The position numbers and the translations under genes were made by a program. The notes under the pieces are model-generated. The model saw nothing but the letters and a program-made list of their open reading frames with translations. It did not search any database and was not told the DNA's origin. Source: Pseudomonadota bacterium (GTDB lineage Bacteria > Pseudomonadota > Alphaproteobacteria > Micavibrionales > UBA2020). From it: a stretch of 64,000 nucleotides of DNA. The DNA is taken from NCBI GenBank assembly GCA_021845905.1, contig JAJZVA010000006.1, forward strand, positions 74,264 through 138,263. Direction: 5' to 3'. The stretch's first letter is position 1. Each line of letters begins with the position of its first letter. Below, in pieces: positions 8,208 to 51,204 of the stretch.

Positions 8208-8234
8208 AGCACCTCCGGTAATAAAGTTTCAAAA

Positions 8235-13820: not shown

Positions 13821-13857
13821 CGGTCCGATAGGCTGGCATTGGCGCTAGGCCCCGATT

Positions 13858-13894
13858 CCTTGCAATTCCGGCGGCTAGCGCCGGAATTGCAAGG
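13858..13894. other. perfect 16-bp hairpin (5-nt loop)
   Basis: ccttgcaattccggcg-gctag-cgccggaattgcaagg; no flanking T-run on either strand. Confidence 0.7.
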
Positions 13895-13999
13895 ATGATA
13901 CCGCGCCAGAAAACTGAAGTAGTTCTTGCCCGCCTTGGCCAGTTTCCGACCGTGGCGCTGCTCGGGCCGCGGCAGGAGGGCAAAACCACGCTCGCCGAA
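13895..13999 (+). pseudogene. truncated 5' end of an AAA ATPase gene (DUF4143-associated type)
   Basis: MIPRQKTEVVLARLGQFPTVALLGPRQEGKTTLAE matches the usual N-terminus and Walker A of this family (memory); similarity ends after ~35 codons. Confidence 0.6.
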
Positions 14000-14092
14000 G
14001 GGCGAAGGAGTCGAGGTTATCGGTCTCAAGGAAATGGCGTCGCTTGTCGCGGGCTCCTAGAGCGGCCCATGGCGTCAGCGATGAAGTCGGTT

Positions 14093-17768: not shown

Positions 17769-17806
17769 ACTAAACTCCTTCTAATTGTTATGCTTACGGA
17801 GCGCCG

Positions 17807-21103: not shown

Positions 21104-24057
21104 GACCGCGCCTCCCCAAGATCGAACGTGCCTTGCGCTGGCCCGATCTTGCCCTGAAAATCAAGCGCCGCCTGTTCGAGGTGGGGGAATTCCTCCGCCA
21201 GAAGATTGTAGACTTGTGCCTCCTGCGCCCATCCCTTCTTTTCGCAGATGTCGTAAAGGCGGTAAGCGAGCGCCCGCGCCGCCTCGGCGTCTTCGGAACT
21301 CATTTCGGCGATCAGCGCGGCGGCGGCGGCGGTGCTGCCATCCGCTGCCTCCAGTACGCGTATCAAATGCTGCGTGCATTCCCAATGCGTAAGAGTGCGG
21401 TCCGTGCTCGGCCGCCAGCCCTCCTGCATCTCAGCACGCTTCAGAAGGCGCGCCACACCTCCCTTAGCATAGAACACGCCGGCATGTTCCAAATCGCCAA
21501 GACCAAGATTGTAAGCGTTCGCCATGCCGATGGCGTCGCCGGACTTGCCCTGCTCCACGCCGAATGCCTGAAACCAGTCGATACAGAAACGTGTCGCTGG
21601 ATCATAATGCGCATCTTCTTCGCCGAGGATTTCCTCTCGCACTTCGTTGATAAGTGCGATGGCTGTGCGCACGGTCATCTCGGAATCATCAGGCTCCAAG
21701 ACCTTCGCGTAGCTGGTGAAAATGCCCATCCCCGGCCCAAGCGCCGACTGCGCCATATCGACCGGCCCGACACCGGCCTCCTTGATCTTCTGGAGAGCAT
21801 TTGGCAGGTCTTGTTTTAAGCGCGCGGCAAATTCCCGACGGGTACTGACCGCAGCGGTCACTGGGCGCTTAGTACAAACAAGGACAATTGATGAGGCCAA
21901 AGCATTTGAGGCTTGTCCTACCATGCGACTCGCGTTTTCCGTTCGCACCGGCCAAGTCCCATCGATTATGTATCCAGCATTAACGACACCCTGTAGAAAA
22001 GAAGCCCATCCAGCCGACGTGAGTCCGTCATCAGCGATCTCGGACTGCTTGAACGCGTAGTAGATGGCAACCGGCACCTCATCTGTCGCCGCCTTGTGTA
22101 TGTTCTTCAGTGCCTTCGAAATGCCCTCCATGAAAAACTGTTCGGCTTTTTCCACAGAGCCGTGGAGGTGACGCGTTGCTACGAGTTCTTCTTCCTTCGG
22201 CGTAAGAGTTCGTCTAAATAAGTCAGGCCAAATCTGTCTTAGTGACGGCCGCAGCCAGTTATAGAAGAAATCGGCGAGAACTGCGTAGCCAATATTATCA
22301 AAATATGGAGGATCAGTACAAAATACGGAATCTGGGTCGAATGTATTTTCCTGCGCGGCCTTATTGGTAATCACTCCCTGAAGGCGATTTGACTGCCAAC
22401 ACAGCGTAGAGGCGAGCGCCTTGCACTGGCCATCCAACACGGTAAGGAAGCTGCCGGACCTTTCTCCTAGAATATTCGACTCTGCAAAGTCCCATACCAT
22501 CGCCATACCCTGTCGCGCAAAGAGCTGACGTGGACATTGAGCAATTGGCTCCCATCTACAAAGGTTGTTGTTGAGGTCAGCAGACTTGTCTATGGCAAAC
22601 GCTACATAGGTAGCGACTGCATCAGCATATGCTTCGGCGCCACGTCCACCGCTTGCCAGCGAAACGTCGTCAGGGGTCAGACCATTTCGTTGAGCGGCGT
22701 TAAGTACATTTGTCCGTAGCTCCTGGATTAAGCCTGATAACGTTGCAAGTGCGATAGTCTGCCGATCTGTGAATAGGTGCCCCCAAGTGCGTAGACCATA
22801 GGCGGAACAAACGCCTCCTGTAATCATCGCTCTGGTTGGTGTTGCTCCAGATAAAAACCGCTCTCTCGCATCGGCGACGACATCTTTCCACTCATCGGCC
22901 AGTGTGGCTCGCTCATGTAGGTTATCCGGTGCGATGTATTGTCTTCCTCCAGGTCCATCTGCAACGACTGCCATTAGTCGAACCGACAGCCTATCTGCTT
23001 TGCCTTCTGTCTGGATGTAACTTCTTGGGATCGGCGCTCCCGAGAGCAAGCAGAGGAAATCTTGTGCTTTACCGGCCTTGGTGCCTAGTTTCTTGTTCTC
23101 CTCTACCTCCTTCGTCAGGTGCCCAGATTTGATCTCAAAACGCCAGCCGTCTTGTGCAGCGGCGTCCCGCACCACCTCGACCCATGCTTGCTTGCCTTTC
23201 TTCGCCGAGAGCATGAATGAAGAAACAAGCGGCACATGCGCACCCTTTGCCATGGGGTCGGGCGAGGCAACCGTGCGCGCCCACAACCATGCGATGACAG
23301 TCGCCTCGCTGCCGTCCGGCAGTGTCGCTTTGGGATAGAGATGCCCGATGCGTTTCTCGGCCTCGCCGCGCATCCATTGGCCGTAATAGCGCATGTCCTC
23401 GGCGAGTCCCTCCGCGCCCTTCCAGGCGCGGTGGGGATCGCGGTCGGGATTTACCGGCGGGCGGCCGGCAAACTTCGGCGGGATTTCCACCAGCGCCTTC
23501 GATATCAGCACTGCCACCGGGTTGAGGTCGGAGCCGTAGGCGCGAAGCCCGAGCCGTTGCGCTTCGAGCGGGATTGAGCCGCCGCCGCAGAACGGGTCAT
23601 AGACCGGCGGAGCTTTCTCTTGCAGATATGCGACAACGGCATCGGCGTCGGATTTCGCCGGCGGTTCCTCGCCCAACCCCCAGGCGACGGAGCGCGCGAT
23701 CTCCCACCGGGCATTGTTGAGAATGTGCGCGTTGGTCGAGGATTCCCACTGCACAAGCCCACCCTCATACCGACCGGTTTTCGGGTTCTTGTGACCTGCG
23801 ATCAGGTCGTGAAGACGCTTTCTTTCCACGTTCTGCGCTTCTTCTGTCGGGAAGCGGTCCGGCCAGGATGACGGGTCATCGACAAGCTGGGCGAACAGGA
23901 CGGCACGACACGCCGCGAGCGGTCGCCGTGCCCACCAGAGATGAAGCGTGGAAGGGTGCCCATGCCGAATGGACTTCTCCCGCGCGCTCGCCTCGTTGAT
24001 GGCTTCGAGCGGGATCGAGACTTCGATGAGCTTTTTTCTTCTTACGGGTCCGCTCAT
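21100..24057 (-). CDS. DUF1156-type DNA methyltransferase
   Basis: N-terminal IEVSIPLEAINEASAREKSIRHGHPSTLHLWWARRP; DPFCGGGSIPLEA (motif I) and TDPPYFDNIGY (motif IV). Confidence 0.8.
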   Translation of the reverse strand: MSGPVRRKKLIEVSIPLEAINEASAREKSIRHGHPSTLHLWWARRPLAACRAVLFAQLVDDPSSWPDRFPTEEAQNVERKRLHDLIAGHKNPKTGRYEGGLVQWESSTNAHILNNARWEIARSVAWGLGEEPPAKSDADAVVAYLQEKAPPVYDPFCGGGSIPLEAQRLGLRAYGSDLNPVAVLISKALVEIPPKFAGRPPVNPDRDPHRAWKGAEGLAEDMRYYGQWMRGEAEKRIGHLYPKATLPDGSEATVIAWLWARTVASPDPMAKGAHVPLVSSFMLSAKKGKQAWVEVVRDAAAQDGWRFEIKSGHLTKEVEENKKLGTKAGKAQDFLCLLSGAPIPRSYIQTEGKADRLSVRLMAVVADGPGGRQYIAPDNLHERATLADEWKDVVADARERFLSGATPTRAMITGGVCSAYGLRTWGHLFTDRQTIALATLSGLIQELRTNVLNAAQRNGLTPDDVSLASGGRGAEAYADAVATYVAFAIDKSADLNNNLCRWEPIAQCPRQLFARQGMAMVWDFAESNILGERSGSFLTVLDGQCKALASTLCWQSNRLQGVITNKAAQENTFDPDSVFCTDPPYFDNIGYAVLADFFYNWLRPSLRQIWPDLFRRTLTPKEEELVATRHLHGSVEKAEQFFMEGISKALKNIHKAATDEVPVAIYYAFKQSEIADDGLTSAGWASFLQGVVNAGYIIDGTWPVRTENASRMVGQASNALASSIVLVCTKRPVTAAVSTRREFAARLKQDLPNALQKIKEAGVGPVDMAQSALGPGMGIFTSYAKVLEPDDSEMTVRTAIALINEVREEILGEEDAHYDPATRFCIDWFQAFGVEQGKSGDAIGMANAYNLGLGDLEHAGVFYAKGGVARLLKRAEMQEGWRPSTDRTLTHWECTQHLIRVLEAADGSTAAAAALIAEMSSEDAEAARALAYRLYDICEKKGWAQEAQVYNLLAEEFPHLEQAALDFQGKIGPAQGTFDLGEARS

Positions 24058-27000
24058 GCCGGCGGCCCCCCTACGGTCAGAATTTTTGTCAGGTTCAAAT
24101 TTCGTGAGACCTCCATGAATCCGGGTTCAGCACCGAAAACGCCGGTGGGGCTTCGCACATAAATGGGCGGCCGGGCGAATCCGGCTTCGACCTGCACGAC
24201 GGCAAGGATGTAGGAAAGCTCGGAGTCTTCGGTGTTGAAAGCCGTCAGCATCTCGTTGCGGGTGACGGTGATGGTATCGGCGGCCTCCGCGCGTCCCTTC
24301 ACCTCAATGAAGATCAGGTCGCCGGTCTTCGCATCGCGGCTTTCGATGTCATAGCCGCGATTTTCGGCGGACACATCGCGCGGGTCGCGCCCAAGTGCGC
24401 GCTCCGCGGCCATGACGGCTTCCATCGCGAGCTGTTCGATTTCTGCGCGGTCTTTTGCGAGTCTGGTTGCCGGACCGGACGGCTCGGAATATTTGGCGAA
24501 CCAGCCGATCGGAACCACCAGCGCCGCGCCCTGTATCTCCGGTGGCAAGGGCGCGATCTGCCGTTCCTTGGCAAGCTCGGAAAGGCGCTTGTCGAGCCGG
24601 TCGGTCAGCATCTCAACATAGCGCCGCGCATTCTGGGAATTAAGGCGTTGCTGCTTGCCGGCTTTCTCCTGCCGTTCGAGTTCGAGCGCCCGATGCTGCC
24701 AATGCAGAATTTCGCGGCGCAGGCGTTCCTTTACGGCCGTCTCGATCTTCTGAATTTCTTGCAGCCGCCGGGACTTAACCTCTTCCAGGTGGTGCGGAAC
24801 GAGTTCCGTGATGGCATATGAACGAACCGCGTCCTCGATGTTGCCGGCGAGCCAATCCTCATGCAGGAGCGGCTCAATCTGCTGTTTCTCGTCTTCCTTA
24901 ACCGGCCGGCAATCGAGATAAGGCGCTGCGCCGCCGTCCATGGCGCTGCCATTGCGGTCGAGATAAACGAATTGAAGGCGCTGCGAGATTACGCGCGGGC
25001 GTCCGTTACGCCCGACACGGCCATCACGAATACCATGTTCCAAATACACGAGGACACGGGGCTGTTCACCGCTATCGTTCTCATCAACCAGGACTGCACC
25101 CTGGCCTAACAGATTGCGATAACGATCCAGCGTCAAATCAACAGTGGCATCCAAGAGCGGGTGGCCGGGCGCGACCAGCATGGCCTGGTGCTTGCCGGGG
25201 ATATCCCCCTTGTCAAAACAGATTCGTTCATAGCGCGGGAGTACAGGATCGCCGCGACCGATGAGCCGGTCGCGGTCCCGGAGGATGGCGGGCACGCGCC
25301 TGACTTCATAGCGACCCTTTTCCCGCGGGCGCATAACGCCGCCGACTAGCGCGAACGCCTCCTCGAAAAACGAGCGGATGTAGCGCGGCTGCAAACGGCG
25401 TGCCTCTGCGCGCTCCATCTCCTCTTTGAGAGTGGTGATGGTGGCGGGATCGAGTCCTTCTTTGGTGAGCTTGCTGCGCGTAACAATCTCGTCGATATGC
25501 TTGCGGTCGATGGCGCCGTCAATCGCTGTGAAAAGTCGCTCGCGCACTTCGGGGCTTTCGCCATAGCGGATTGCTTCCATGAACATGTCGCGGAGCGCGC
25601 GCGCCTCGAACAGCTCGCCGAGCACGTCGTAGACTTTGCCGCCGAGGGTCTCGCGCGCAGTCTCCAGCTTTTCAAGCAGACGGGCATAAACTTCGCCTTC
25701 GCGGGTTTCGCCCGCGATAAGGTTCCAAAGGTGGCATACTTCAGTCTGGCCGATCCTGTGGATACGCCCAAAGCGCTGCTCCAGGCGGTTCGGATTCCAA
25801 GGCAGGTCGTAATTGACCATAAGGTGCGCACCACGTTGCAGATTCACACCTTCGCCAGCGGCGTCATTGGCGATCAGAAAGCGGACCCTCGGATCGTCGT
25901 TGAAAGCGGCGATCGCGGCGCGACGGCGATCGCGCGGCACACCGCCGTGAATGATCGCAACGGCCTCCGCCTCGCCAATTCGCCCGCGAATACGTGTGGC
26001 GAGATATTCCAGGGTATCGCGGGATTCAGTGAAGACGACGATCTTCCGGTGTACATCGTTCGCAGGGTCGTAGACGATGGGATCGTCCAGAATGCGGTCC
26101 AGCTCGCGCCACTTGGTATCTTCCCCCGAACGGCGCAGCACGCGGGCCAGCCCCTCAAGCTCTTTCAGGGACTCAATCTCAGCTTCGAGTTCGGCGATGG
26201 TGCGCGCGGCTGTCGCCTGATCGACAACCTGATCTTCGAGGTTCTCCAATTCGTCCTCGGGGGCCTCATCAACGTCTTCGTCGTCCCAGGTTGGAATGTC
26301 TGTCTTCGTTGACAAAACACCTGCCGCCTCATGGCCGCGCTTGAGCAAGCGCTCCTCCTCAAGGCGGGCTTCGAGCCGCGCAAGGCGCCGCTTCAAGGAT
26401 TCATGGATGGCGGCCGGAGACGATGCGAGCCGTCTTTGGAGAATTTGCAAGGCGAAGCCGACATTATTGCGCCGGCGGTCGCCGCCGTCCTGTATCTGGT
26501 CGGCGCGGTTCATTTCGTCGCGCACGTAACGGGTCACCGCTTCATAGAGCACGGCCTCCCGGTCCGAGAGCTTGTAGGAAACTGTGTAAGCCTTGCGCTC
26601 GGGAAAGAGCGGCGTGCCATCGAAGCGTTTGAGTTCTTCCTTGGTCAGGCGGCGGATCATGTCCGAGATATCGACCTTGTGCGCTCCCTCGCGGAAGCGG
26701 CCCTCAAAGCGGTCGGAGTCCAAGAGCCCCATGAAAAGCTGAAAATCCTCCTCCTTGCCGTTGTGGGGCGTGGCTGTCATGAGGAGAAAGTGGCGCGCAA
26801 GGGAGCCAAGAAGCTGTCCGAGCTGATAGCGCTTGGTGTATTTGACCTCACCGCCGAAGAAGTTGGCGGACATGCGATGGGCTTCGTCGCAGATGATAAG
26901 GTCCCAACCAGGCGCAGCCTTCAGTCGGTCCTGAAGGTCCTGTGCTCGGGACAGCATGTCGAGGCGGGCAATGACTCTCTGGTGTTCGGCGAAGAAATTT

Positions 27001-27575
27001 CCGCTTGCAGAAGCTTCAACCTGATCGCGCGTCAGGATGTCGAAGTCGGTCGAGAACTTATCACGCAGTTCATCTTGCCACTGTTCGACCAGACTTCCAG
27101 GGGCGACGATCAGGCAGCGCTCAAGATCGCCCCTGATGAGAAGCTCCTTGATGAGCAAACCGGCCATGATTGTCTTGCCCGCGCCGGGATCGTCGGCGAG
27201 GAGAAATCGTAGGGGTTGGCGTGGCAGCATGTCCTCGTAGACGGCTGTCAACTGGTGGGGTAATGCCTCGATTTGGGACGAGCGGACCGCGAGGAACGGA
27301 TCGAAAAGGTAAGCGAGCCGAATGCGCAAAGCTTCCGAAGTGAGACGTAACAGATGACCATCACCATCAAAGGCGAAACGGCGCGAAGGGGATGCTAGTT
27401 CCAGCTCCGTCTCGGAAGACCGAAATAGAACGGTCTGTTCGACGCCGCCGGTGGATTTGTAAGTGACCTCGACCGCATCAGGACCGAAGGAGCGCGCGGC
27501 GATAACATCGACGAACTCGCCGCCGGCGATCCCACGTATCCTGCTTCCTGCTACGATCTCTTCCAGCCGCATCAT
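24054..27575 (-). CDS. SNF2-type helicase with C-terminal PD-(D/E)xK (DUF3883-like) nuclease domain
   Basis: DDPGAGKTIMAG, ICDEAHRMS, QRFGRIHRIGQT; C-terminus NRGYDIES...LIFIEVKGR. Confidence 0.8.
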   Translation of the reverse strand: MMRLEEIVAGSRIRGIAGGEFVDVIAARSFGPDAVEVTYKSTGGVEQTVLFRSSETELELASPSRRFAFDGDGHLLRLTSEALRIRLAYLFDPFLAVRSSQIEALPHQLTAVYEDMLPRQPLRFLLADDPGAGKTIMAGLLIKELLIRGDLERCLIVAPGSLVEQWQDELRDKFSTDFDILTRDQVEASASGNFFAEHQRVIARLDMLSRAQDLQDRLKAAPGWDLIICDEAHRMSANFFGGEVKYTKRYQLGQLLGSLARHFLLMTATPHNGKEEDFQLFMGLLDSDRFEGRFREGAHKVDISDMIRRLTKEELKRFDGTPLFPERKAYTVSYKLSDREAVLYEAVTRYVRDEMNRADQIQDGGDRRRNNVGFALQILQRRLASSPAAIHESLKRRLARLEARLEEERLLKRGHEAAGVLSTKTDIPTWDDEDVDEAPEDELENLEDQVVDQATAARTIAELEAEIESLKELEGLARVLRRSGEDTKWRELDRILDDPIVYDPANDVHRKIVVFTESRDTLEYLATRIRGRIGEAEAVAIIHGGVPRDRRRAAIAAFNDDPRVRFLIANDAAGEGVNLQRGAHLMVNYDLPWNPNRLEQRFGRIHRIGQTEVCHLWNLIAGETREGEVYARLLEKLETARETLGGKVYDVLGELFEARALRDMFMEAIRYGESPEVRERLFTAIDGAIDRKHIDEIVTRSKLTKEGLDPATITTLKEEMERAEARRLQPRYIRSFFEEAFALVGGVMRPREKGRYEVRRVPAILRDRDRLIGRGDPVLPRYERICFDKGDIPGKHQAMLVAPGHPLLDATVDLTLDRYRNLLGQGAVLVDENDSGEQPRVLVYLEHGIRDGRVGRNGRPRVISQRLQFVYLDRNGSAMDGGAAPYLDCRPVKEDEKQQIEPLLHEDWLAGNIEDAVRSYAITELVPHHLEEVKSRRLQEIQKIETAVKERLRREILHWQHRALELERQEKAGKQQRLNSQNARRYVEMLTDRLDKRLSELAKERQIAPLPPEIQGAALVVPIGWFAKYSEPSGPATRLAKDRAEIEQLAMEAVMAAERALGRDPRDVSAENRGYDIESRDAKTGDLIFIEVKGRAEAADTITVTRNEMLTAFNTEDSELSYILAVVQVEAGFARPPIYVRSPTGVFGAEPGFMEVSRNLNLTKILTVGGPPA

Positions 27576-27808
27576 GCCTTCTTTCTCTCTGGCCAGATTT
27601 CGACACCCGCGGCAGGCCCCTTTGCCTGAAGCCGTTGCGACGAACCGCGTTCTTCGGCCGCGTCTTTGTATTCCGGCACGTAATCCCGCATGAACTCTCG
27701 GGTGACCTGCGCGTCGAGCAGCGTACCAGCCAGCTTCGCGGCATCCGCCACGGAATGCAGCCGGCTCAGCTCATGTGCAAATAGCTTGGCGTGGTATTCG
27801 GTTATCAA
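27572..27808 (-). CDS. small ORF; first ~35 codons look like the N-terminus of a different SNF2 helicase family
   Basis: MITEYHAKLFAHELSRLHSVADAAKLAGTLLDAQV then unrelated sequence; ATGA overlaps with both neighbours. Confidence 0.4.
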   Translation of the reverse strand: MITEYHAKLFAHELSRLHSVADAAKLAGTLLDAQVTREFMRDYVPEYKDAAEERGSSQRLQAKGPAAGVEIWPERKKA

Positions 27809-27999
27809 GCCTTGCCGTCCCTTCTTTGCTCCTCGACTTTGCGCTTCATCCAGTTGGCGATCTCCTGCCGTTCAAACCGCCAAGACCCGCCAACCTTGAA
27901 ACCGGGAAGTTTGCCTTCTGCGGCAAGCTTGTAGGCCGTCTTCTCGTTGATCTTGAGAAGCTCCGCCACTTCCCGGATCGTGAGAATCTCGTCGGTCAT
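27805..27999 (-). CDS. excisionase-family (MerR-like) HTH DNA-binding protein
   Basis: LTIREVAELLKINEKTAYKLAAEGKLPGFKVGGSWRFERQEIANWM. Confidence 0.8.
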   Translation of the reverse strand: MTDEILTIREVAELLKINEKTAYKLAAEGKLPGFKVGGSWRFERQEIANWMKRKVEEQRRDGKA

Positions 28000-28193
28000 A
28001 TGCCACCCGGAATTGCCAACCGGGACAGTATAGGAAAAAAACTGGAAAATCCGAGAAAAAACTTACTTGAGTTCTGGGTCAGGCACGGACGCTTGAGGCA
28101 TGTTCGGGAATTGGACGTGCTTCGGGGAAACAAAGGAGTTATGGTATTCACTAATCAATTGCGTAAAGTATCAAAAAATGATACCTTGCGCAC

Positions 28194-28997
28194 ATGAGTA
28201 AGGATTCTCCTCCCCTGCACGCCAGGGGTTATATAGAGGCCCTCGCCTCCCGCGGACGCTATCAGTTCGGCTCTGAAGAGGCCCGCAAGGCACTCGGGGT
28301 TTCGGAGGCTGCGGCCAAGCTGGCGCTGAACCGGCTCGCCCGACGGGGCCTGATCGCCAGCCCGGCCCGCGGCTTTTACGTCATCGTGCCGCCGGAATAC
28401 CGCCGTCTCGGCTGCCTCCCGGCCGACCAGTTCATTCCGTCCCTGATGCAGCGGCAGGGCCTTGCCTATTATGCCGGACTGCTTTCAGCAGCCCAGTTTC
28501 ATGGCGCCGCCCATCACAGGCCACAGGAATTCCAGGTAATGCTCGCCAAGGCGCGCCGCCCCATTCGCTGCGGGCAGATGCGCGTCACCTTCCATATGCG
28601 CAAACGCCTCAAGGAAGTGCCGGTGCAGACCTTCAACACGCCGCGCGGCACGGTCCTCGTCTCCACGCCCGAAGCGACGGCTCTCGACCTTGTCGGCTAT
28701 CAAGAACAGGCAGGCGGACTTGACGTAGTTGCGACCGTGCTTGCGGAGCTTGCCGAAAAAATCGATCCGGAAAAACTGGCGGCGGCGGCGCAGACGGCGC
28801 CGCTGCCGTGGGCACAGAGGCTGGGCTATCTCCTGCACAAGATCGGCGCCGCGGACAAAGCAGCCGTATTGAAAGATTACGTCAGGCGGCATGCGCGGCA
28901 GAGCGCCGCGCTGCTGCCGGGAGCGCCTGCCAAAGATGCGCCGCGCGATGCGGCGTGGAAGGTGATCGTCAATGCCGATGTGGAGGCGGAACTGTGA
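28194..28997 (+). CDS. abiEi: AbiEi-family antitoxin
   Basis: N-terminal wHTH (AAAKLALNRLARRGLIASPARGFYVIVPPEY); overlaps downstream AbiEii gene. Confidence 0.8.
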   Translation: MSKDSPPLHARGYIEALASRGRYQFGSEEARKALGVSEAAAKLALNRLARRGLIASPARGFYVIVPPEYRRLGCLPADQFIPSLMQRQGLAYYAGLLSAAQFHGAAHHRPQEFQVMLAKARRPIRCGQMRVTFHMRKRLKEVPVQTFNTPRGTVLVSTPEATALDLVGYQEQAGGLDVVATVLAELAEKIDPEKLAAAAQTAPLPWAQRLGYLLHKIGAADKAAVLKDYVRRHARQSAALLPGAPAKDAPRDAAWKVIVNADVEAEL

Positions 28998-29815
28998 TTC
29001 CGCGCGACTACATCACGGAGTGGCGGGCGCAGGCGCCCTGGGTGCAGGACTTGCAGGTCGAGCAGGACCTTGTCATCAGCCGGGCGCTCGTGGCGATCTT
29101 CACCCATCCTCTGCTTGCACGCGCGCTCGCCTTCCGCGGCGGGACGGCACTTTACAAGCTGCACCTGAAGCCGCCGGCGCGGTACTCCGAGGATATTGAT
29201 CTCGTACAGGTCAACGCCGAACCCGCGGGTCCGATCATGGACGCGCTCCATGAGGCGCTCGATGACTGGCTTGGCAAGCCGCGGTACAAGCAAAGCGAAG
29301 GCCGGGTGACATTTTTCTATCGCTTTGACTCGGAAGACATGCCGCCGATCCCGCTCAGGCTCAAGGTCGAAATCAATTCGCGGGAGCATTTTGCGGTTTA
29401 CGGTTTCGCGCGCCTCCCGTTCGCCGTGTCCTCGCGCTGGTTTGAAGGCGCCTGCGAGATCGCGACCTATGCGCTTGATGAGCTGCTCGGCACGAAGCTG
29501 CGCGCCCTTTATCAGCGCAAGAAAGGCCGCGACCTTTTCGATCTGTCCGTCGCGCTCAAAGAACCGTCTGCCCATCCTGATCGCGTGATCGATGCGTTTT
29601 CTCGATACATGGCGCATGGTGGCCACCAGGTGTCGCGCGCCGAGTTCGAAGAGAATTTTGATGCGAAACTGCGCGACCGGCAATTCACCGCTGATATCGG
29701 CGCGCTACTTGCTACGGGTTACGCATGGGACATTGACGCCGCCGCCGAAATCGTATCCTCGCGTCTGATTGCGCACCTGCCGGGCGAGCCGTGGAAGGGC
29801 GAAGGAAAAAAATGA
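28994..29815 (+). CDS. abiEii: AbiEii-family nucleotidyltransferase toxin
   Basis: GTG start overlapping upstream TGA; FRGGTALYKLHL...RYSEDIDLVQ motif. Confidence 0.8.
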   Translation: MIPRDYITEWRAQAPWVQDLQVEQDLVISRALVAIFTHPLLARALAFRGGTALYKLHLKPPARYSEDIDLVQVNAEPAGPIMDALHEALDDWLGKPRYKQSEGRVTFFYRFDSEDMPPIPLRLKVEINSREHFAVYGFARLPFAVSSRWFEGACEIATYALDELLGTKLRALYQRKKGRDLFDLSVALKEPSAHPDRVIDAFSRYMAHGGHQVSRAEFEENFDAKLRDRQFTADIGALLATGYAWDIDAAAEIVSSRLIAHLPGEPWKGEGKK

Positions 29816-38186: not shown

Positions 38187-39701
38187 TTAGCGTACACGTG
38201 GTGGCGGATCGGGTCCGTCCCTGCTTCGCCCATGTTCGTCCTTGAGCTGTTGTTCGAGGCGACGGCGCTCCTCGATCTCGGCGAGGAGTCTTACGGCGGC
38301 TTCGTGCTCGCGCAAATACCGGTCGCGTTCCTGCTCGTATTTGGCGTCGTGTTCGCGGCGCTGTTGTTCGTGGCGTTCGGTCAGCTCGGCGAGGTCACTT
38401 GCCCGTTCGGCCTTGAGGCGCGCGACCCGGTCAGCGCGTTCCTCTTTCTGTCGGCGCAAGAAGGCGTCCTTCGCGTCTTTGCGGTCGCGGGCTTTGTCGG
38501 CCATTAGTTGCGGATTGAGTCTTTCTTTGATCGCTTCGATGAAAGCGGCGATGCCGGTCTTTGCCCGATAGGTGTCCCGGAAAAACTGCTCCCTCGCCGC
38601 CTGTTGCAGGGCGTCGAAGTGACCGAGCTTCTCCCGGGCTTCCTCTGTGAGGACCCGCGCCGTCTGTTTGTATTCAGCCTCTTGCCGGAGGCGCATCTGG
38701 CGGCCTTCCTCCGCATGGCGCTCCTTCAACGCGGTTTCAAGGGCGGCGATTTCTTCCTTGGTGGGGTCTTGCTTGGCGGGGCTGTCCGGCGCGGGGCTTT
38801 CCGACGGTGACGGTGGCGGTTGGGGCGCGGGCTGTTGGTGAGCTTCAGGGCTCTCTGGCGGGGCTTTCTCCGGCTCCGGTTTCCGGGCGCGCTCGTCCTG
38901 AAGCGCCTTGGCCTGATCGATGGTCGGGATCACGTTCCGGTCGATGTCGGCCATGAATTCCCGCAGCTCTTTGGCGTTCACGCCTTTGATCTGCCGGGCG
39001 AGGCTATAGACCTGGTGATGTTCGTCCACGATCACGTAATCGCGGCGGTCGCCCCTGGCGAGGACGTAGCCCTTTTCTTCAAGGGCCGCCTTGAAAGCCT
39101 GTCCATTGTCGGATTGCTCATAGAGCGCGGTGATGGCGGCTTTGAATTCCCGCGGGTCGATGCCGGTGCGTTCGCCCTGCTGCCATTCGGCGTGGTTGAA
39201 TTCCTGCCGCGGGAACTCCGGCTGCTTCTCCCGATCGCGTTTGGCGTGCTTGCCGGGAACGTGCTCGTGCCCGAATTCCTTTTCGAGGGCCATGCTCGCC
39301 CGCTCGTGGGCAAGGTAGTTCCAACTGTCGGAGCGCAGCGTCATCGTGTCGATGTCGGTGCGCTGCCAGACGACGTGGATGTGCTCGCGCCCGTGCTTTT
39401 CATGGAGGACGACGGCGCGGGGCTGGTCTTCCAGGCCAAGCTCTTTTTCGAGGACTTCGACGGAGCGCTGCCACTGCTCGGGCGTCATGGCGTAGTCGCC
39501 GTGCGGGTCGATGTTGGCGTGATAGAGCCCCCGGCTCCCCAGAGTGCCTTCGGTCAGAAACTGCCAGTCGCGAAAGCTCTCCTTGAGGCTGTCGTGCGGG
39601 GACTGGATTTCGAGGATTTTGACGCGCTCATTGGTGTCGGTGCGGAGAAGATGGCGGGCGAGCTGGTCAGGGCTGCCGCGGCTGCTACCCTTGATGATCA
39701 T
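38187..39701 (-). CDS. relaxase/mobilization nuclease (MobA/VirD2 family)
   Basis: MIIKGSSRGSPDQLARHLL..., HGREHIHVVW His motif; long coiled-coil C-terminus. Confidence 0.85.
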   Translation of the reverse strand: MIIKGSSRGSPDQLARHLLRTDTNERVKILEIQSPHDSLKESFRDWQFLTEGTLGSRGLYHANIDPHGDYAMTPEQWQRSVEVLEKELGLEDQPRAVVLHEKHGREHIHVVWQRTDIDTMTLRSDSWNYLAHERASMALEKEFGHEHVPGKHAKRDREKQPEFPRQEFNHAEWQQGERTGIDPREFKAAITALYEQSDNGQAFKAALEEKGYVLARGDRRDYVIVDEHHQVYSLARQIKGVNAKELREFMADIDRNVIPTIDQAKALQDERARKPEPEKAPPESPEAHQQPAPQPPPSPSESPAPDSPAKQDPTKEEIAALETALKERHAEEGRQMRLRQEAEYKQTARVLTEEAREKLGHFDALQQAAREQFFRDTYRAKTGIAAFIEAIKERLNPQLMADKARDRKDAKDAFLRRQKEERADRVARLKAERASDLAELTERHEQQRREHDAKYEQERDRYLREHEAAVRLLAEIEERRRLEQQLKDEHGRSRDGPDPPPRVR

Positions 39702-41711: not shown

Positions 41712-44700
41712 TCACGTCCTGACCTCTTCCGGCCCGGGAATGTCGGCGGCGACGAGTTGCTTTAGGTCCTCTATTCCTACGTCATGCGCATCCGCCAGCC
41801 TCGTCGCCTGTCGTTCCATGCAGACTTCGAAGAGATTGCGCACCGCGCGACCGTTGCCGAACCCCTTGCCACGCCCTGTATAGAGCGCATGGATAGTTTT
41901 CTTGAGCTTCGGGGGCGCCTTTCCGGTCAGCTCCATGCCGTTCCGGGCACAAAGCCCCCGGAAAATCTCCATCAAGTCTGACGGTTCATAGTCGGGGAAA
42001 TCGATGAACGTCTTGAAGCGCGATTTGAGGCCGGGGTTGCTGTCCACGAAACCCTGCATTTCTTCGCGATAGCCCGCCGCGATGACCACGAGACGGTCCC
42101 GGTAATCCTCCATGAATTTGAGCAGCGCCGTAACGGCCTCGATCCCGAAATCGTTGTTCGAGTCTGACGAAATCAGGCTGTAGGCTTCGTCGATAAACAG
42201 CACGCCGTCCAGGGCCTGCTCCACGGCCTCCGCAACCTTGGGCGCGGTCTGGCCGATATATTCCGCCACCAGATCGCCCCGGCTTACCTCGATACAATGG
42301 CCTTTTTTCAGGACCCCAAGATCGCGATAAATCCGGCCGATGATGCGCGCGACCGTCGTCTTGCCCGTGCCGGGGTTGCCCGTAAAAACCAGATGGTTCG
42401 ACCTCTCGGGCACCGGCAAGCCTGCCTTCCGCCGTGCCTGGTTGACTTTCTCCAGATTGGCGACGGTTTCGACCTGCTTTTTGACGGGCGCGAGACCGGT
42501 CAGTCCGCGCAGGTCCGCGAAGGGGTCTTGCTTCGTCTCGACCGGAGCGGGCGCTGCCGGTTGCTTTTCTCGGGGCGGCTTCGGCGGAGGCGATGACGGT
42601 TGCGGTGGCGGTTGCGGCGGTTTCTGCTGCCCTTTGCTGAAATAAGGATTCTCGTCGTACTGAAGCGGCGGCGCCTTACCCATGTTGTACGGATACATAT
42701 GCTTGAGATGATCGTAGGCACGATCGAGATTCCAGTAGTCGATGGGTCTGAGATACTCCGGCAAACCGCGCGGGTTGAGCAGGATTGCCACGTCCCGCCC
42801 GAGATTGAGAATCTCGTCGGGCATCAGCAGCGGGCGTGCCATCTCGCCGAAGTTGGTGCTTTCCCCGGATGTGGCGCCGCCCTTGGTCTCGCCGGAGGAC
42901 ATGGATGTCGCCACGGTGCGCACGGTCGCCTTGCCGAGGCTCTCGCTGAGATATTTGGCGGTGTCGAGTTCGTTGACGAAACAGAACCACTTGAAGGCGC
43001 AATTGCTGAGGATCGTTCCGCTGGAATCGCCGTAGTGATCCTTGAGCTGGTCGAGCCCCTGCACGATCAGCGTGAAGTCGAGCCCGTAGCCGCTCATCAG
43101 CGCGATATCGCGCGGAATGTCGTCGATGCGCCCGATGGAGCCGAACTCGTCTATCAGGAACATGCAGCGACGGCGCGGCACGCTTGTGGCCTTGTGGCTT
43201 TTCATGCCCTGCATGGCGGAGGCGATGACCAGCCGGAGCCAGGTGGCGTGGGTTTGAATCCGGTCGTGCGGGATGACGAGATAGACGGTGGTCGCTTCCT
43301 CCCGGAGCTTCTTCATCGAAAACGAAGACGAGGCCGTCGATTGCTTGATCTGCGGGTCCGACAGGAACTTGGTGTTCTCTGCCAGGTTCGACATGATCCC
43401 GCTGTAGGTTTCCGGCGCGAGGTCGATGTACTGGCTGACCATCTCGCTGACCGCGCCGTGGTAAGCGGTTGAAGCCGTCATCTTGACCAGAATCTTGAGA
43501 AACTCGGCCCGGCTCATGGTCACGATCTGACGGGCGCGGGCGAGGGTCTTTTGTTCGCCCGGCGCGTCGGCGATCCAGAGAAAGACGCCCGCGAGCACGT
43601 TGGCCGCGCTCCCCTGCCAGAACGACTCCTTGCCTGTCGCGGGCGGGCAGATGATTGCCGCGAGCGATTGGGCGAAGGCGACGGCGTTGGGATCGTTGCG
43701 GTCGAGCGCGTCGAGCGGGTTGAAAGTCGCCCTGGCGAAGCCAAGGCTCCGGTAACGGCTCTCCATTTCTCCCCACGGGTTGACGATATGGACCGTCTGC
43801 TTATGCCGGTTGCGGCGCGTGCGCGCCGTGATCGCCGCGTTCTCGCCTTTGGGGTCGATGACCAGCATCGAGCCTGTGTAATTCAACAAGGTCGGCACGA
43901 TAACGCGGGTGCCCTTGCCCGCCCGCGTGCGGGCCACGATCAGCGTATGTGTTTCCGGCGATGACGTGACGGGGGCGCCGGGAGCATCGGCAGGGATGTC
44001 AGGTCTGCTGCTTTTACCGAAGTTGACGCCCTGGAACATATTCTCCCCGCGACGCTCCACGATCCGATGTTCGGCCCAGTCGGCGGTGCCGTAGTTGTCG
44101 CTCAGCGGCGGAAGGGAATCGTCCGGCTCTTCTTCACGTCTCAACATCAGCCACCCAAAAAACCCGATCACGAACGCGCCGCCACCGTAAACCAGAACGT
44201 AAGCGCTTGCGGTGATCCAGGGATTCGGCTTGACCGAAGACCCCGCGTTCGCGGAAGAAACGGGGTTCTGGCCCCGTCTTTGCGCCTCACTCTCCCAATT
44301 GACCTGCGCCGCCACGTATTCCGGCGCAAAGTAGCGCCCGAGCACGTCACGCATAAAATCCGTGTTGGCGCTGTAGGCGTATTCCTTCTCGAAAAACTGC
44401 GGCCGGATGCAGCTCTTGCCGGAACAATTCCCGTCGTTGAATTTGAGGCCATAGGGTTTCTCGCCGAAGGCGCGGGAGTATTCCCGAAACTTGGCGGCGG
44501 CGCGGGGCGGCATCGACCTGATGTCCAGGGCGCCGGTCCAAACCTGAATCGCGTTGCGGAGGATTTCGAAAGCTGCGGCCTGCCGTGCGGCCGTATCGAT
44601 TTCGTTCGAACCCCGGACGTCCCTGAACACTTGCGCGACCGTGGGAGCATGGGCGATCCATCCGTCGCTCATGGCTGCGGCGCGGCAGGTGGCCGGCACA

Positions 44701-44747
44701 GGAGCAAGCGCCAGAGCGAAAGACAGACAGAGCAGACGAAAGCGCAT
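41712..44747 (-). CDS. VirD4/TraG-type coupling protein fused to a C-terminal CbbX/SpoVK-like AAA+ module
   Basis: Signal-like MRFRLLCLSFALALAPVPATC (start 44747; track start 44855), TM segment, IVARTRAGKGTRVIVPTLL Walker A, Pro-rich linker, then VFTGNPGTGKTTVARIIGRIY...GVLFIDEAYSL. Confidence 0.8.
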   Translation of the reverse strand: MRFRLLCLSFALALAPVPATCRAAAMSDGWIAHAPTVAQVFRDVRGSNEIDTAARQAAAFEILRNAIQVWTGALDIRSMPPRAAAKFREYSRAFGEKPYGLKFNDGNCSGKSCIRPQFFEKEYAYSANTDFMRDVLGRYFAPEYVAAQVNWESEAQRRGQNPVSSANAGSSVKPNPWITASAYVLVYGGGAFVIGFFGWLMLRREEEPDDSLPPLSDNYGTADWAEHRIVERRGENMFQGVNFGKSSRPDIPADAPGAPVTSSPETHTLIVARTRAGKGTRVIVPTLLNYTGSMLVIDPKGENAAITARTRRNRHKQTVHIVNPWGEMESRYRSLGFARATFNPLDALDRNDPNAVAFAQSLAAIICPPATGKESFWQGSAANVLAGVFLWIADAPGEQKTLARARQIVTMSRAEFLKILVKMTASTAYHGAVSEMVSQYIDLAPETYSGIMSNLAENTKFLSDPQIKQSTASSSFSMKKLREEATTVYLVIPHDRIQTHATWLRLVIASAMQGMKSHKATSVPRRRCMFLIDEFGSIGRIDDIPRDIALMSGYGLDFTLIVQGLDQLKDHYGDSSGTILSNCAFKWFCFVNELDTAKYLSESLGKATVRTVATSMSSGETKGGATSGESTNFGEMARPLLMPDEILNLGRDVAILLNPRGLPEYLRPIDYWNLDRAYDHLKHMYPYNMGKAPPLQYDENPYFSKGQQKPPQPPPQPSSPPPKPPREKQPAAPAPVETKQDPFADLRGLTGLAPVKKQVETVANLEKVNQARRKAGLPVPERSNHLVFTGNPGTGKTTVARIIGRIYRDLGVLKKGHCIEVSRGDLVAEYIGQTAPKVAEAVEQALDGVLFIDEAYSLISSDSNNDFGIEAVTALLKFMEDYRDRLVVIAAGYREEMQGFVDSNPGLKSRFKTFIDFPDYEPSDLMEIFRGLCARNGMELTGKAPPKLKKTIHALYTGRGKGFGNGRAVRNLFEVCMERQATRLADAHDVGIEDLKQLVAADIPGPEEVRT

Positions 44748-45173
44748 CTGAATCAGTCCCCGGGGCATCGCCACAGGCGGCTCGATGGCAGACAAGGCCG
44801 AAAGCTCTGTAGTCCGTCCGACGCCAGAAGCGATAGTGCTGCGGAAGTATTGCATACGCCAGTCCCTGAACCTCTGAAAAAAGCGCGTTGGAGACCTGCC
44901 GCTTTGATTGTGTCCGCGCGGTAATGATTCAAATCCATGATCTCCCCCCCTTTTCAGGGAGCCCCGATTCCGGACTTCGATGGTGCAGCGTTAGCACCGG
45001 CGCGCCTTTGGGCGCTGCAAGCTTGTTGCCAAGCTCCTTCTCTTCGTTGCGGTCCACTCATGTTGCGCATGCACAGCATGGTGGATGCAGCTCAAGGCGG
45101 CCGTCGCTCTCCACGGCTGCGTGAAGTCCGCGATCGGCGCGGGCAGAAGAAAAGGAGAGACACCATGAGAGTC

Positions 45174-45960: not shown

Positions 45961-46230
45961 TCACGCTGCCAGTAGGGTTTCGGCTTCGAGCATCACGTCG
46001 ATGTAATCGACGGGACCGCCGGCGGCGGTGATGATCGAACGCGGCAGGGCGTGCGCGTAAAGCCCGCTTGGCGCGATGGGAAGCGGTGCGTCGGTGGGAT
46101 AGATGCTCCGCACCTGAAGGTGCGCGAAGTCTTGTCCGGTGACGCTGGCCGGAAGCCAGTCGGGCTCATAGGTGATTTCCAGCAAGTGGCCCTTCCAGTC
46201 CATGCGGTGTATTTCGGTCGTGCGTTTCAT
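45961..46230 (-). CDS. hypothetical protein
   Basis: 89-aa ORF directly upstream of ardA and downstream of leader element copy B. Confidence 0.5.
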   Translation of the reverse strand: MKRTTEIHRMDWKGHLLEITYEPDWLPASVTGQDFAHLQVRSIYPTDAPLPIAPSGLYAHALPRSIITAAGGPVDYIDVMLEAETLLAA

Positions 46231-46294
46231 CGGCGTTTTCCTTTTTTCTGTTTGAACGATCCCCTTCGGGATTGAGTCCCCGCCTCACGCGCAA

Positions 46295-46396
46295 GGGCGC
46301 GGTGTCACACAAGAAAATCGGGGGGAACCTTCAGGGGGAACCGACCCCTGAACGAAGTTCGGGGCCTGTTTTCTTGTTGACGCCAGAAAGCGCCCG
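46295..46396. promoter_or_regulatory. conserved structured leader element, copy B
   Basis: GGGCGC-GGTGTCA-C-ACAAGAAAA...CCTTCAGGGGGAACC...TTTTCTTGT-TGACGCC...GCGCCC; compensatory changes relative to copies A and C. Confidence 0.65.
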
Positions 46397-49244: not shown

Positions 49245-49558
49245 TGGTGCGGGCGGCCGGACTTGAACCGGCACAGGCCTTTCGGCCCTACGGATTTTCA
49301 TACCACTACGGCTTTCGCCGCGTTCGCCGCTGCGCCTCTCGGCACAGGACGCTTTGTGGTCTGGACTATCCCTTCACCATAGCCGTTGCTTTAGGTGCTG
49401 CCCGTCTAGTCTCTACACCTTCCCGTTTCCGGGCTTGGCTCGGGATTGCCATGTGAAAGGTTTCCCCGACTTTGAGCAGTTCTGCATCGCGGGTTTCCCC
49501 GCGCGCACTCAATTTTCTGGTTTAAGTCCGTTGCGTCTACCAATTTCGCCACGCCCGC
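49245..49558 (-). tRNA. tRNA-Leu(UAA) interrupted by a group I intron (exons 49558-49524 and 49298-49245)
   Basis: 5' exon GCGGGCG-TG-GCGAAATTGGTAGACGC-A-ACGGA-CTT; 3' exon AAAA-TCCGT-AGGGCCGAAAGGCCTGT-GCCGGTTCAAGTCCGGC-CGCCCGC-A-CCA. Confidence 0.85.
49299..49523 (-). ncRNA. group I intron (225 nt, no ORF) between U34 and A35
   Basis: Shares TCGGGGAAACCTTTCACATGGCAATCCCGAGCCAAGCCC and GGGAAGGTGTAGAGACTAGACGGGCAGC with the 6715-6945 intron; GAAGGGATAGTCCAG; ends ...GGTATG. Confidence 0.8.
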
Positions 49559-49746
49559 GTGGTACATCCACCTATAGCCGCAACCCACTTAACAACCAAG
49601 AAAAATCGAGCATTTCTGCGGATTCCGGCATTACGGAAAGGCAGGGTAGCAGCCTTCGCCGCCTGAGGTTTTGGCTAGCATAACACAATAGGAGTCGTAC
49701 CTGCTCGGCGCGCAGACGCCGATGCGGCACGCCTGTACGCGTCCGC

Positions 49747-51069
49747 CTATCTTGCCTTTGGGGGCGGAGTCCGCGGTCGCGGCTTGCGCACGTTTATGGC
49801 TCCGGCATCGATGCTGTCTTTGATGTGAGAGGCGTAATACTTCTCGATCATCTCGACACTGGTACGGCAGTTTTTCGCGATCTGATAGATGTCGGCGCCT
49901 TCCATGAGCCTCAAGCTGATATAGGTATGACGGAGGCTATAGGCGGTTCGCTCGTTGCCCTCCCGGTCTGTCTTGAGATCGAGTTCGTTCAAAATGTCTC
50001 TAAACAATTGCCTGTGCGTTTTCGGGAACACCAGGTCCGTCGGTTTCGGAAGGACGGTTGTTGTGTCCGGCTCCTCGTTCGATGCGCCTGACGAAGAAGA
50101 TGATCGAAGGCTTTCGCTCATCTTTGCCGGACGCCGGCGCTTCTCCAAGCGCCTGAAGGGCTCTACTGCGCCAGGCATGCTTTTGCAGTAGCCGACACCA
50201 CGCTTGCCGCGAACGGTGATGACAAGAATGTCGTCTTTGCCGTTTTTGGCGCTTCCGGACTCGATTTCCACGTCCCGAAACTGAAGCCGCAGCGCTTCGT
50301 CGGGCCGCAGTCCGGTGTTCGCCATGAACAGCACAAAGTCATGGAGTTGCTCGCACGACCACTTCCAGCGCGGCTTTGGAGGATTCTTGGCGCGCGTTCC
50401 CGTTGCCGTATAGAGCTGCCTGTACTCTTCCGCAGAGAACCAGGCGCGATGGGATACCTTGGATGAGGATTGGTATGGCGCGGATAGATTGGGAAGATGG
50501 TCAAGCCACCCCTGCCGATTTGCAGTTTTCAGTATCTGACGGAGGCAGACTATTTCCTGATGGAGGGCGCTGCGCGATGGAGGCTTTTGCCTTTCAAAGC
50601 CCTTGGACGAACCGTTCTTCTTGATATGCGCCGCAAGCTTGTGTTGGTCCGTACGGGACATTCCCGTCTTCATGCGGTGTATGCGGTAGTCCTGAACCTT
50701 GCCTGCCGTTATATCGCTGAGAACCAAATTGCCGAAGAACGGATTCAGATGGTTGTTGATCCTGTCCTTGTGGCAGGCGACATATACCTCGCTTCTCTGC
50801 CCTTCGGTAATGGTCTCGAATTCATCGATGAAGCGTTCGGCTGCTTCCCGGAAGGTCTTCCCTTCCTTCAACTCGCCGGCTCGATATTTTCCCAGGAGGC
50901 TTAGGTACCAGTCTCGGGCTACATCCTTTGCGCGGGCGAGGCTTTCTTCTCTCGTCGTGGTGCGCCGCTGGCGTCCGGCCACTGAACACGAGCACTGCCA
51001 ATGCGGACTGTTCTTCCGCATGTAGAGCTGGACGCGATTGTCCATAAGGGAGTGGCGGGTGGTGTCCAT
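49747..51069 (-). CDS. tyrosine recombinase/integrase
   Basis: Homologous over its length to 7005..8207 (FMANTGLRPDEA, AYSLRHTYISLRLMEGADIYQIAKNCRTSVEMIEKYY) with a Ser-rich insertion. Confidence 0.9.
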   Translation of the reverse strand: MDTTRHSLMDNRVQLYMRKNSPHWQCSCSVAGRQRRTTTREESLARAKDVARDWYLSLLGKYRAGELKEGKTFREAAERFIDEFETITEGQRSEVYVACHKDRINNHLNPFFGNLVLSDITAGKVQDYRIHRMKTGMSRTDQHKLAAHIKKNGSSKGFERQKPPSRSALHQEIVCLRQILKTANRQGWLDHLPNLSAPYQSSSKVSHRAWFSAEEYRQLYTATGTRAKNPPKPRWKWSCEQLHDFVLFMANTGLRPDEALRLQFRDVEIESGSAKNGKDDILVITVRGKRGVGYCKSMPGAVEPFRRLEKRRRPAKMSESLRSSSSSGASNEEPDTTTVLPKPTDLVFPKTHRQLFRDILNELDLKTDREGNERTAYSLRHTYISLRLMEGADIYQIAKNCRTSVEMIEKYYASHIKDSIDAGAINVRKPRPRTPPPKAR

Positions 51070-51092: not shown

Positions 51093-51110
51093 TGTGCTAG
51101 ATATGTGCTA
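51093..51110 (+). repeat. arm-type repeats TGTGCTA x2 (large element, integrase end)
   Basis: tgtgcta at 51093-51099 and 51104-51110. Confidence 0.55.
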
Positions 51111-51163
51111 AGTATCTATAGCGCCAAATGCCTGAATATACAAGGAAATATTATTTTACATAG

Positions 51164-51204
51164 GATTTTAAGTCGTGTGCGTCTACCAGTTCCGCCACAG
51201 GGCC
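51164..51204 (-). tRNA. 5' part of the resident tRNA-Leu(UAA), ending in att core copy 3
   Basis: Minus strand GGCCCTG-TG-GCGGAACTGGTAGACGC-A-CACGA-CTTAAAA-TC, then CTATGTAAAATAAT (no tRNA 3' half). Confidence 0.85.

Follow-up and report, generated by a model that had tools for sequence, protein, structure and literature searches.

The 64,000-nt stretch of DNA analysed here (the window; assembly GCA_021845905.1, contig JAJZVA010000006.1, positions 74,264 to 138,263, from an alphaproteobacterium of the Micavibrionales) contains two copies of a module in which an integrase gene is followed, on the same strand, by a tRNA-Leu(UAA) gene that is interrupted by a group I intron. For the copy at 49245-51069 an earlier interpretation made without database searches (the sequence-only reading) had listed an integrase, a spacer of 188 nt and a tRNA-Leu(UAA) with a 225-nt intron at U34/A35, and all of these features are present. 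It had further assigned the same arrangement to the other, diverged copy (6663-8207), which is correct for the order of the genes and the position of the intron, but not for the spacer, which comprises only 25 nt in that copy. Each module forms the leading end of one of two integrative elements that are arranged in tandem and referred to as the large and the small element (Table 1).

Two modules and a split host gene

The splice junctions of the large-element tRNA gene read CTT/A...G/AAAA, locating the intron between U34 and A35, and the pattern CTT/...G/AAAA is common to both window copies. Once the intron is removed, the large-element gene gives an 89-nt tRNA-Leu(UAA) with encoded CCA in the ARAGORN fold, with a cloverleaf, a long variable arm, the anticodon UAA and the discriminator A73, and ARAGORN assigns tRNA-Leu(taa) to both spliced window copies as well as to all 46 members of the family described below. 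With default settings, however, ARAGORN finds zero tRNAs in the whole window, i.e. introns had to be permitted, and Rfam at its gathering threshold recovers one of the two introns: the large-element intron (49342-49533) scores 54.2 bits against RF00028 (group I intron, gathering score 50), the small-element intron (6750-6955) 45.9 bits. The intron is predicted to self-splice. Homing as a mobility mechanism was rejected because the intron has 225 nt and no open reading frame (ORF). A weak tmRNA-like Rfam match at 6663-6775 is an artefact that merely reflects the tRNA-like 3' exon.

We also considered the capture of the host tRNA promoter, which would then drive both integrase and replacement tRNA. 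This is unsupported, as the small-element tRNA has a good promoter-like site of its own (TTGAAG-16-TATAAT, 7024 to 6997) directly upstream; at the large-element tRNA the promoter search gave nothing decisive.

The two integrases are 57% identical. Their scores for PF00589 (23.5 bits for the large and 18.9 bits for the small element) are both below the cut-off of 27.1, and the N-terminal SAM-like domains pass, with 26.8 and 22.6 bits for PF14659 and 24.2 and 22.3 bits for PF13102. No NCBIfam family matches the integrase, nor does it have a relative in the PDB at E<=0.01. R255 (in TGLRPDE), K289, R380 and Y412, whose roles were assigned by eye, are at least 97% conserved in 80 relatives; R380 is part of the motif YSLRHT, in which the usual first His is replaced by Tyr377. 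Although the matches to the tyrosine-recombinase domain are weak, the conservation of the expected Arg/Lys/Arg/Tyr residues suggests that the integrase is a tyrosine recombinase.

The boundaries of the elements are marked by the 11-mer GACTTAAAATC, which corresponds to the anticodon-loop region of the mature tRNA and occurs exactly three times in the window, always on the minus strand. At junction J1 it ends the intronless 5' half of a tRNA gene and is followed by non-tRNA sequence, at J3 it is preceded by non-tRNA sequence and begins the 3' half, and at J2 it has no tRNA flank. Joined to each other, the two halves give a perfect 85-nt tRNA-Leu(UAA) cloverleaf in which 7/7 positions of the acceptor stem and 5/5 of the anticodon stem are paired, and they thus represent one host gene that has been split at the anticodon loop by two tandem elements. 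The anticodon loop is reportedly a known class of crossover sublocation, said to go back to Williams in 2002. According to both ARAGORN and the junction sequences there is no intact tRNA at J1, J2 or J3, i.e. the disrupted gene is not restored, and the regenerated gene that marks the ends of an island in Islander together with a displaced fragment is missing. As the halves of the target remain unrestored, the tRNA next to the integrase is a replacement and not the target.

Each element has its own short repeats near its ends. TAGCACA is found in the window only at 8424, 51093 and 51104, all on the minus strand and at the ends of the large element, and CTTACACGG only at 3919, 3931 and 8235, at the ends of the small element; each repeat is absent elsewhere in the window in that orientation. 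This placement fits candidate arm-type integrase sites on either side of attP. The GC content of the small element is 0.49-0.53 as compared to ~0.60 in the flanks.

Table 1 Positions of the modules, junctions, repeats and cargo genes in the window
Feature	Position	Strand	Remarks
Large-element integrase (putative tyrosine recombinase), 440 aa	49747-51069	-	ORF and Pfam
Spacer, integrase stop codon to tRNA 5' end (49558), 188 nt	49559-49746	-	
Large-element pre-tRNA-Leu(UAA), 314 nt	49245-49558	-	35-nt exon, 225-nt intron, 54-nt exon
Large-element tRNA 5' exon, 35 nt	49524-49558	-	ends ...GGACTT (U34)
Large-element group I intron, 225 nt, ORF-free	49299-49523	-	Rfam RF00028; terminal G (omega-G)
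Large-element tRNA 3' exon, 54 nt	49245-49298	-	AAAATCCGT at start, CCA at end
Small-element integrase, 400 aa	7005-8207	-	ORF and Pfam
Small-element replacement pre-tRNA-Leu(UAA)	6663-6979	-	34-nt exon, 231-nt intron, 52-nt exon
Host tRNA-Leu(UAA) 5' half, intronless	51166-51204	-	acceptor GGCCCTG; ends at anticodon loop
Host tRNA-Leu(UAA) 3' part	3806-3855	-	A35 to CCA
att core GACTTAAAATC, J1	51164-51174	-	host 5' half / large element
att core GACTTAAAATC, J2	8341-8351	-	large / small element; tRNA sequence on neither side
att core GACTTAAAATC, J3	3850-3860	-	small element / host 3' half
Large element, 42.8 kb	8352-51163	-	integrative mobilizable, defence cargo; bounded by J1 and J2
Small element, 4.5 kb	3861-8340	-	integrase, intron-tRNA, AbiEi/AbiEii, two small ORFs
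Large-element arm-type repeats (candidate) TAGCACA, 2 copies	51093-51111	-	between J1 and integrase start
Large-element far-end arm-type repeats (candidate) TTAGCAC(A)	8405-8431	-	
Small-element far-end arm-type repeats (candidate) CTTACACGG, 2 copies	3919-3939	-	third copy 8235-8243 beside integrase
BilC/BilD-like JAB and E1 proteins	11971-13820		large element
Gabija GajB/GajA	14093-17768		large element
Hma HmaC/B/A	17807-27575		large element
AbiEi/AbiEii	28194-29815		large element
Relaxase	38187-39701		large element
VirD4/TraG-like coupling protein	41712-44855		large element
AbiEi/AbiEii, second pair	5124-6660		small element

Related loci and structural constraint on the module

A scan of one genome per species yielded no fewer than 544 integrase relatives, and the best 80 loci were analysed; they stem from Alphaproteobacteria, Acidobacteriota, Binatia, Planctomycetota, Nitrospinota and others. 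Examples of carrier strains are Parerythrobacter lacustris RS5-5, Tunturibacter empetritectus M8US30 and Asticcacaulis sp. 201. In about 70 of these 80 loci the 5' half of a tRNA-Leu gene, truncated at the anticodon loop, is located 110-200 nt upstream of the integrase. Where this half is of the UAA type (~51 loci), in 49 cases an intron-containing tRNA-Leu(UAA) follows immediately after the integrase and has the same orientation; as exceptions, two loci have no tRNA within ~2.9 kb, one carries a tRNA-Leu(CAA) and one lacks the flank. Loci with a CAA-type half either carry an intronless tRNA-Leu(CAA) or have no carried tRNA. In the integrase tree the switch from UAA to CAA occurs in at least six clades, and each time the anticodons of target and cargo have changed jointly. 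Moreover, the distances between the integrases correlate with those between the pre-tRNAs (Mantel r = 0.38, reached in 0/2000 permutations), in line with the suggestion of the sequence-only reading that integrase and tRNA are inherited as a module.

The related locus L014 has an integrase that is 96% identical and is located in a different host tRNA; the core is the point from which it is homologous to the window. The tRNA-proximal ~120 nt of the spacer are conserved in this locus. In L014, a metagenome-assembled genome of the Stellaceae, integrase and tRNA are separated by ~740 nt (4318-5059) instead of 188 nt, and this region appears to hold an extra ORF; the module thus tolerates insertions between integrase and tRNA.

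The sequence-only reading had also concluded that both tRNAs and both introns are under selection for structure, based on differences between the window copies, all of which are exact: the acceptor is GCGGGCG/CGCCCGC versus GCAGGCG/CGCCTGC, the T stem GCCGG/CCGGC versus GGGGG/CCCCC and an intron hairpin CCCG-GAAA-CGGG versus CCCC-TGAACA-GGGG, whereas long blocks of the catalytic core are identical. An alignment of 46 pre-tRNAs (the two window copies and those of 44 genomes) agrees with this conclusion. Standard pairs are found in 98.3% of the cells as compared to 90.0% in shuffles (0/500 attain the observed value) and to 33-44% in controls with slid partners, and compensatory changes occur in 37 of 83 pairs, i.e. 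in each stem of the tRNA and in the majority of those intron helices that show any variation. The U-G pair at the P1 splice site (columns 35/52) is invariant in 46/46 sequences. If the two window copies are placed on the consensus structure of the family, 64 pairs are the same, 9 are compensatory, 4 have a one-sided change that leaves them paired and 4 are broken, the latter all in peripheral, poorly aligned helices. The acceptor GCGGGCG of the replacement tRNAs is nearly invariant across phyla, whereas the adjacent host halves vary. As judged by these pairing patterns, exons and intron are under strong structural constraint, and, given the pairing statistics, the Mantel correlation and the constant acceptor, both inferences, structural selection and an inherited module, stand.

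Yet the linkage is one-way. A UAA-targeting integrase predicts an intron-tRNA, but the converse does not hold: among metagenome loci that have a replacement-type tRNA (acceptor GCGGGCG or a close variant) and 1700 nt or more of upstream sequence, such an integrase was adjacent in 12 of 46 and absent from 34, so that a universal two-way linkage is rejected and the intron evidently persists outside the element context. Many of the 34 loci have ordinary-looking chromosomal contexts, and in 5 of them a truncated host half is still located upstream, linked to the tRNA by a conserved 44-nt sequence in three (L119, L142, L200). This would fit elements that decay while the tRNA remains. This one-way character, the tandem elements in a third, destroyed and intronless tRNA-Leu(UAA) gene and the position of the intron in the att core had been missed by the sequence-only reading, which was incomplete in these respects.

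Probable replacement of the target gene and a possible role of the intron

Based on these findings we consider it highly likely that the elements have a disrupt-and-replace anatomy, and we propose with good confidence that integrase and intron-tRNA constitute the conserved leading module of such elements, including splicing of the carried tRNA, its takeover of decoding and a protective effect of the intron. The tyrosine integrase would recombine attP, i.e. a core GA-CTTAAAA-TC between element-specific arm repeats, with the host tRNA-Leu(UAA) gene at its anticodon loop; this gene is split and rebuilt at neither junction, and the element-borne tRNA would take over decoding for it. As the target is destroyed and a substitute is supplied, the host may come to depend on the tRNA of the element.

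The position of the intron might explain why the substitute is interrupted. The intron lies between loop nucleotides 3 and 4, within the sequence common to all att sites (the loop is preceded by GA in 55/55 host targets), and thereby splits the middle of the 7-nt loop, which is the likely region of strand exchange. Hence, the DNA of the replacement gene lacks an intact att core, whereas the mature RNA has a perfect one. As attP and the replacement gene are ~1.5 kb apart in direct orientation, recombination between them would excise the integrase segment, and the intron may block this reaction for the element's own integrase as well as for those of incoming relatives, i.e. it would protect the site and leave the mature tRNA unchanged. 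In sister lineages, intronless replacements may reach the same end via point differences in the anticodon arm.

The comparison of replacements with their disrupted targets is consistent with this mechanism. Of 43 intron-bearing replacements, 42 have in their mature form the same 9-nt core (GA and loop) as the target, whereas of 12 intronless ones only 1 does. The intronless replacements differ from their targets at loop nucleotide 32 or stem nucleotides 30-31. The single intronless UAA replacement (L075), which reads GCA-CTTAAAA instead of GGA-CTTAAAA, likewise has an altered stem. In L044 and L046 loop nucleotide 32 is the sole difference between the intronless replacement and the host 5' half; in L038 it is stem nucleotide 29, so that here the 9-nt core is kept. 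A natural case of an intronless replacement-type tRNA gene that has itself been targeted is provided by L010. The core contrast suggests, without proving it, that because of the intron the replacement gene cannot serve the element's own integrase as a substrate. We rate this step, immunity conferred by the intron, close to an even chance, and the related statement on its retention, namely that the intron is kept because splitting the crossover core hides the replacement gene from site-specific recombination while the RNA stays functional, as a tentative one that falls a little short of even.

Alternatively, the anatomy could be the same and the intron a mere passenger: an ancestral element took up an intron-containing tRNA-Leu(UAA), precise loss of the intron is rare and it plays no role in recombination. 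We regard this account as possible, though we do not favour it. It agrees with the integrase-free occurrence of the same kind of intron-tRNA in the metagenome loci, with a relic copy that adjoins a decayed integrase on plasmids of Bradyrhizobium, with the UAA-and-intron state being the backbone of the integrase tree, i.e. maybe a single inheritance, and with the fact that CAA-targeting relatives function with intronless replacements. Nevertheless, intronless replacements differ from the target somewhere in the anticodon arm in 12/12 cases and within the 9-nt core in 11/12, in three loci the anticodon-arm difference is the sole one in the whole 5' half, and the intron-bearing replacements retain the core in all but one case. 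Such an asymmetry is predicted by selection against an intact core, but not by a passive passenger.

Two further explanations dispense with replacement altogether. The locus might be a classical tRNA-targeting island, in which the integrase-adjacent tRNA is the regenerated target and the integrase has its usual position beside attL. The integrases of such islands normally adjoin the regenerated tRNA (Islander description, PMC4383910), and in L072 a complete tRNA-Leu(CAA) precedes the integrase. In the window, however, the tRNA is downstream of the integrase and inside the element, its DNA lacks the att core, the true target halves (51204-51166 and 3855-3806) are unrestored and two intron-tRNAs coexist with a third, split tRNA; moreover, the acceptor of the carried tRNA is constant across phyla, whereas the host halves differ. 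A classical island is thus contradicted by the junction sequences of the window and very improbable, and a chance adjacency, i.e. intron-tRNAs that are host genes with unrelated integrases nearby, is contradicted by the survey of the family and less probable still. Intron-containing tRNA-Leu(UAA) genes do occur in ordinary chromosomal contexts, but the repetition of order, strand and short spacing in nearly all UAA-target loci and in several phyla, the joint switch of target and cargo anticodons, the significant Mantel correlation and the position of both window copies inside att-bounded elements argue against coincidence.

Several observations weigh against disruption and replacement with a protective intron. 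The integrase-free majority among the metagenome intron-tRNAs has been described above, and no replacement is found within ~3 kb at the CAA-target loci L049, L056, L064, L065, L074 and L079 or at the UAA-target loci L042 and L067. The far element end with the host 3' half has been found solely in the window, the 3-kb flanks of the 80 loci being too short for it. The 5' exon-intron junction of the large-element copy still reads CTTAAAC and thus retains all but one of the 7 loop bases. Phylogenetically the core contrast is non-independent, the intronless replacements come from only ~6-7 lineages, and one of these replacements, L038, keeps the 9-nt core. The intron could be present in UAA replacements simply by descent, group I introns being hard to lose precisely. 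Finally, splicing, recombination and excision are all inferred from sequence.

Known systems, cargo and further loci

The window introns belong to the class of the classical tRNA-Leu(UAA) intron of cyanobacteria and plastids. The blocks ...GAGAAACC... and ...GGCAATCC(T/C)GAGCCAA..., which we take to be those of the plant trnL intron, are recognisably the same as in the window introns. The cyanobacterial/plastid intron constitutes the class 'Leu.3Ug' (Williams 2020, bioRxiv 10.1101/2020.01.27.920355; review PMC4033280), with which the introns described here share the gene, the insertion point CUU/intron/AAAA, the U-G pair at the 5' splice site, the terminal G, the small, ORF-free form and the match to RF00028. 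In contrast to it, they are cargo of integrase-driven elements in non-photosynthetic bacteria, located ~25-190 nt from the integrase gene, and would substitute for the host gene that the element destroyed. The preprint by Williams (2020, bioRxiv 10.1101/2020.01.27.920355) catalogues such introns without an integrase context. The tRNA-targeting islands and prophages of Islander/TIGER (PMC4383910) likewise have a tyrosine integrase and a tRNA gene as target, and crossover in the anticodon loop, arm-type repeats, tandem arrays at one site and cargo for defence and mobilisation are further common features. By definition, however, the disrupted tRNA gene is restored by the island (PMC4383910), whereas here no junction regenerates a tRNA and a complete separate gene is carried.

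Randau and Soll (2008), as cited in PMC4033280, hypothesized that split or interrupted archaeal tRNA genes impede the integration of mobile elements. The idea, in the form given by that review, corresponds to ours in that an interrupted tRNA gene at an integration site removes the DNA target while the RNA is still made. It concerns archaeal host genes with protein-spliced introns or split genes, whereas the interrupted gene described here would be the mobile element's own and would contain a bacterial, presumably self-splicing group I intron, and the evidence, the contrast between intron-bearing and intronless cores, is comparative. In the searchable literature we found no published account of a replacement tRNA that is split by an intron and linked to an integrase. 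The family departs from the textbook rule that tRNA-targeting islands rebuild their target, as the gene is destroyed and a full substitute is brought along, and this design recurs in hundreds of genomes of several phyla. For bacteria it would also be the first evidence from comparison that a DNA site may be protected against a recombinase by a self-splicing intron, giving a concrete, testable function to an intron long regarded as selfish or as a relic. Furthermore, the elements may provide a route of lateral spread for the tRNA-Leu(UAA) intron and are therefore relevant to the long-standing question whether this intron is ancient or mobile. If the mechanism is true, they would be a vehicle that spreads the classical intron across bacterial phyla and leaves it in the only functional copy of the gene, and in bacterial tRNA genes at large, introns in the anticodon loop would have a selective reason in resistance to integration.

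Apart from the module, the large element contains genes for mobility and antirestriction, i.e. a relaxase, a type IV coupling protein (T4CP), a ParB-like protein, ArdA and ArdC, as well as AbiE, Gabija, Hma and BilC/D-like proteins and an IS110 transposase. No further genes of a type IV secretion system were found among the ORFs scanned in this element. With an integrase, a relaxase and a coupling protein, but no full mating-pair apparatus found, it corresponds to an integrative mobilizable element. Its defence genes form a defence island across 11971-29815 of the window. A weak osmY-like Rfam match at 46228-46298 (E = 0.1) is an artefact.

Among contigs that contain the 22-nt intron core (more than 120 metagenome and more than 120 viral contigs matched), three from metagenome and viral collections (L119, L142, L200) have a truncated host 5' half, a conserved 44-nt linker (GTCCGATCGGGTCAG...) and an intron-tRNA-Leu(UAA), followed by ordinary-looking genes and no integrase. 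The host 3' half was not found within 6 kb, and the arrangement could be a relic or a different type of element. On the conjugative plasmid CP094621.1 of Bradyrhizobium sp. ISRA435 (L321, 160195-160966) pseudogene fragments of the integrase precede an intact intron-tRNA-Leu(UAA), and related Bradyrhizobium plasmids give the same match; a spurious coding sequence (CDS) annotated as 'hypothetical protein' covers the integrase remnant and the spacer, just upstream of the tRNA. With such annotation, and with default tRNA finders being blind to these genes, genomes that carry the elements appear to lack an essential tRNA. The more than 120 IMG/VR contigs with the intron core (L201-L320) have mostly other tRNA bodies (acceptors GCGAGTA and GGGAGCG), and none of them has the integrase of the module. 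It appears that phages commonly carry intron-tRNAs with introns of this class.

Several of the 80 loci have peculiarities of their own. In L010 (2750-2870) two tRNA 5' halves are arranged in tandem upstream of the integrase, the first of the host type with a ~45-nt linker and the second of the intronless replacement type (acceptor GCGGGCG), cut at the anticodon loop by the present element. In L039, L063, L069 and L073 the host 5' half and the replacement's 5' exon have the same sequence between nucleotide 8 and the loop, but different acceptor stems, suggesting gene conversion between relic half and replacement, or adaptation of the replacement to the host. The disrupted half of L020 has a CAA-type tRNA body but a CTTAAAA loop, and the carried tRNA is Leu(CAA); L064 and L067 have nearly identical integrases, one at a CAA and one at a UAA site, and neither has a replacement within ~2.9 kb. 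The integrase seems to tolerate the one-base difference between UAA and CAA loops. L058 (6522-6840) contains a tRNA-Leu(CAA) whose group I intron lies one position earlier, between U33 and C34 (ACT/C...G/CAAAA), ~2.2 kb downstream of a CAA-targeting integrase.

In the window itself, ~85 nt past the 3' end of the host tRNA, there is a decayed second tRNA 3' end (3693-3765), which reads tggtagcgctgaccggaatcgaccgagg as compared to tggtggccctgaccggaatcgaaccgg in the gene and is adjoined by a 23-nt tandem duplication, gctccgc[ct]gctgaattttaatt, in two copies. This may be what is left of an earlier island with the 3' end of this tRNA as its target.

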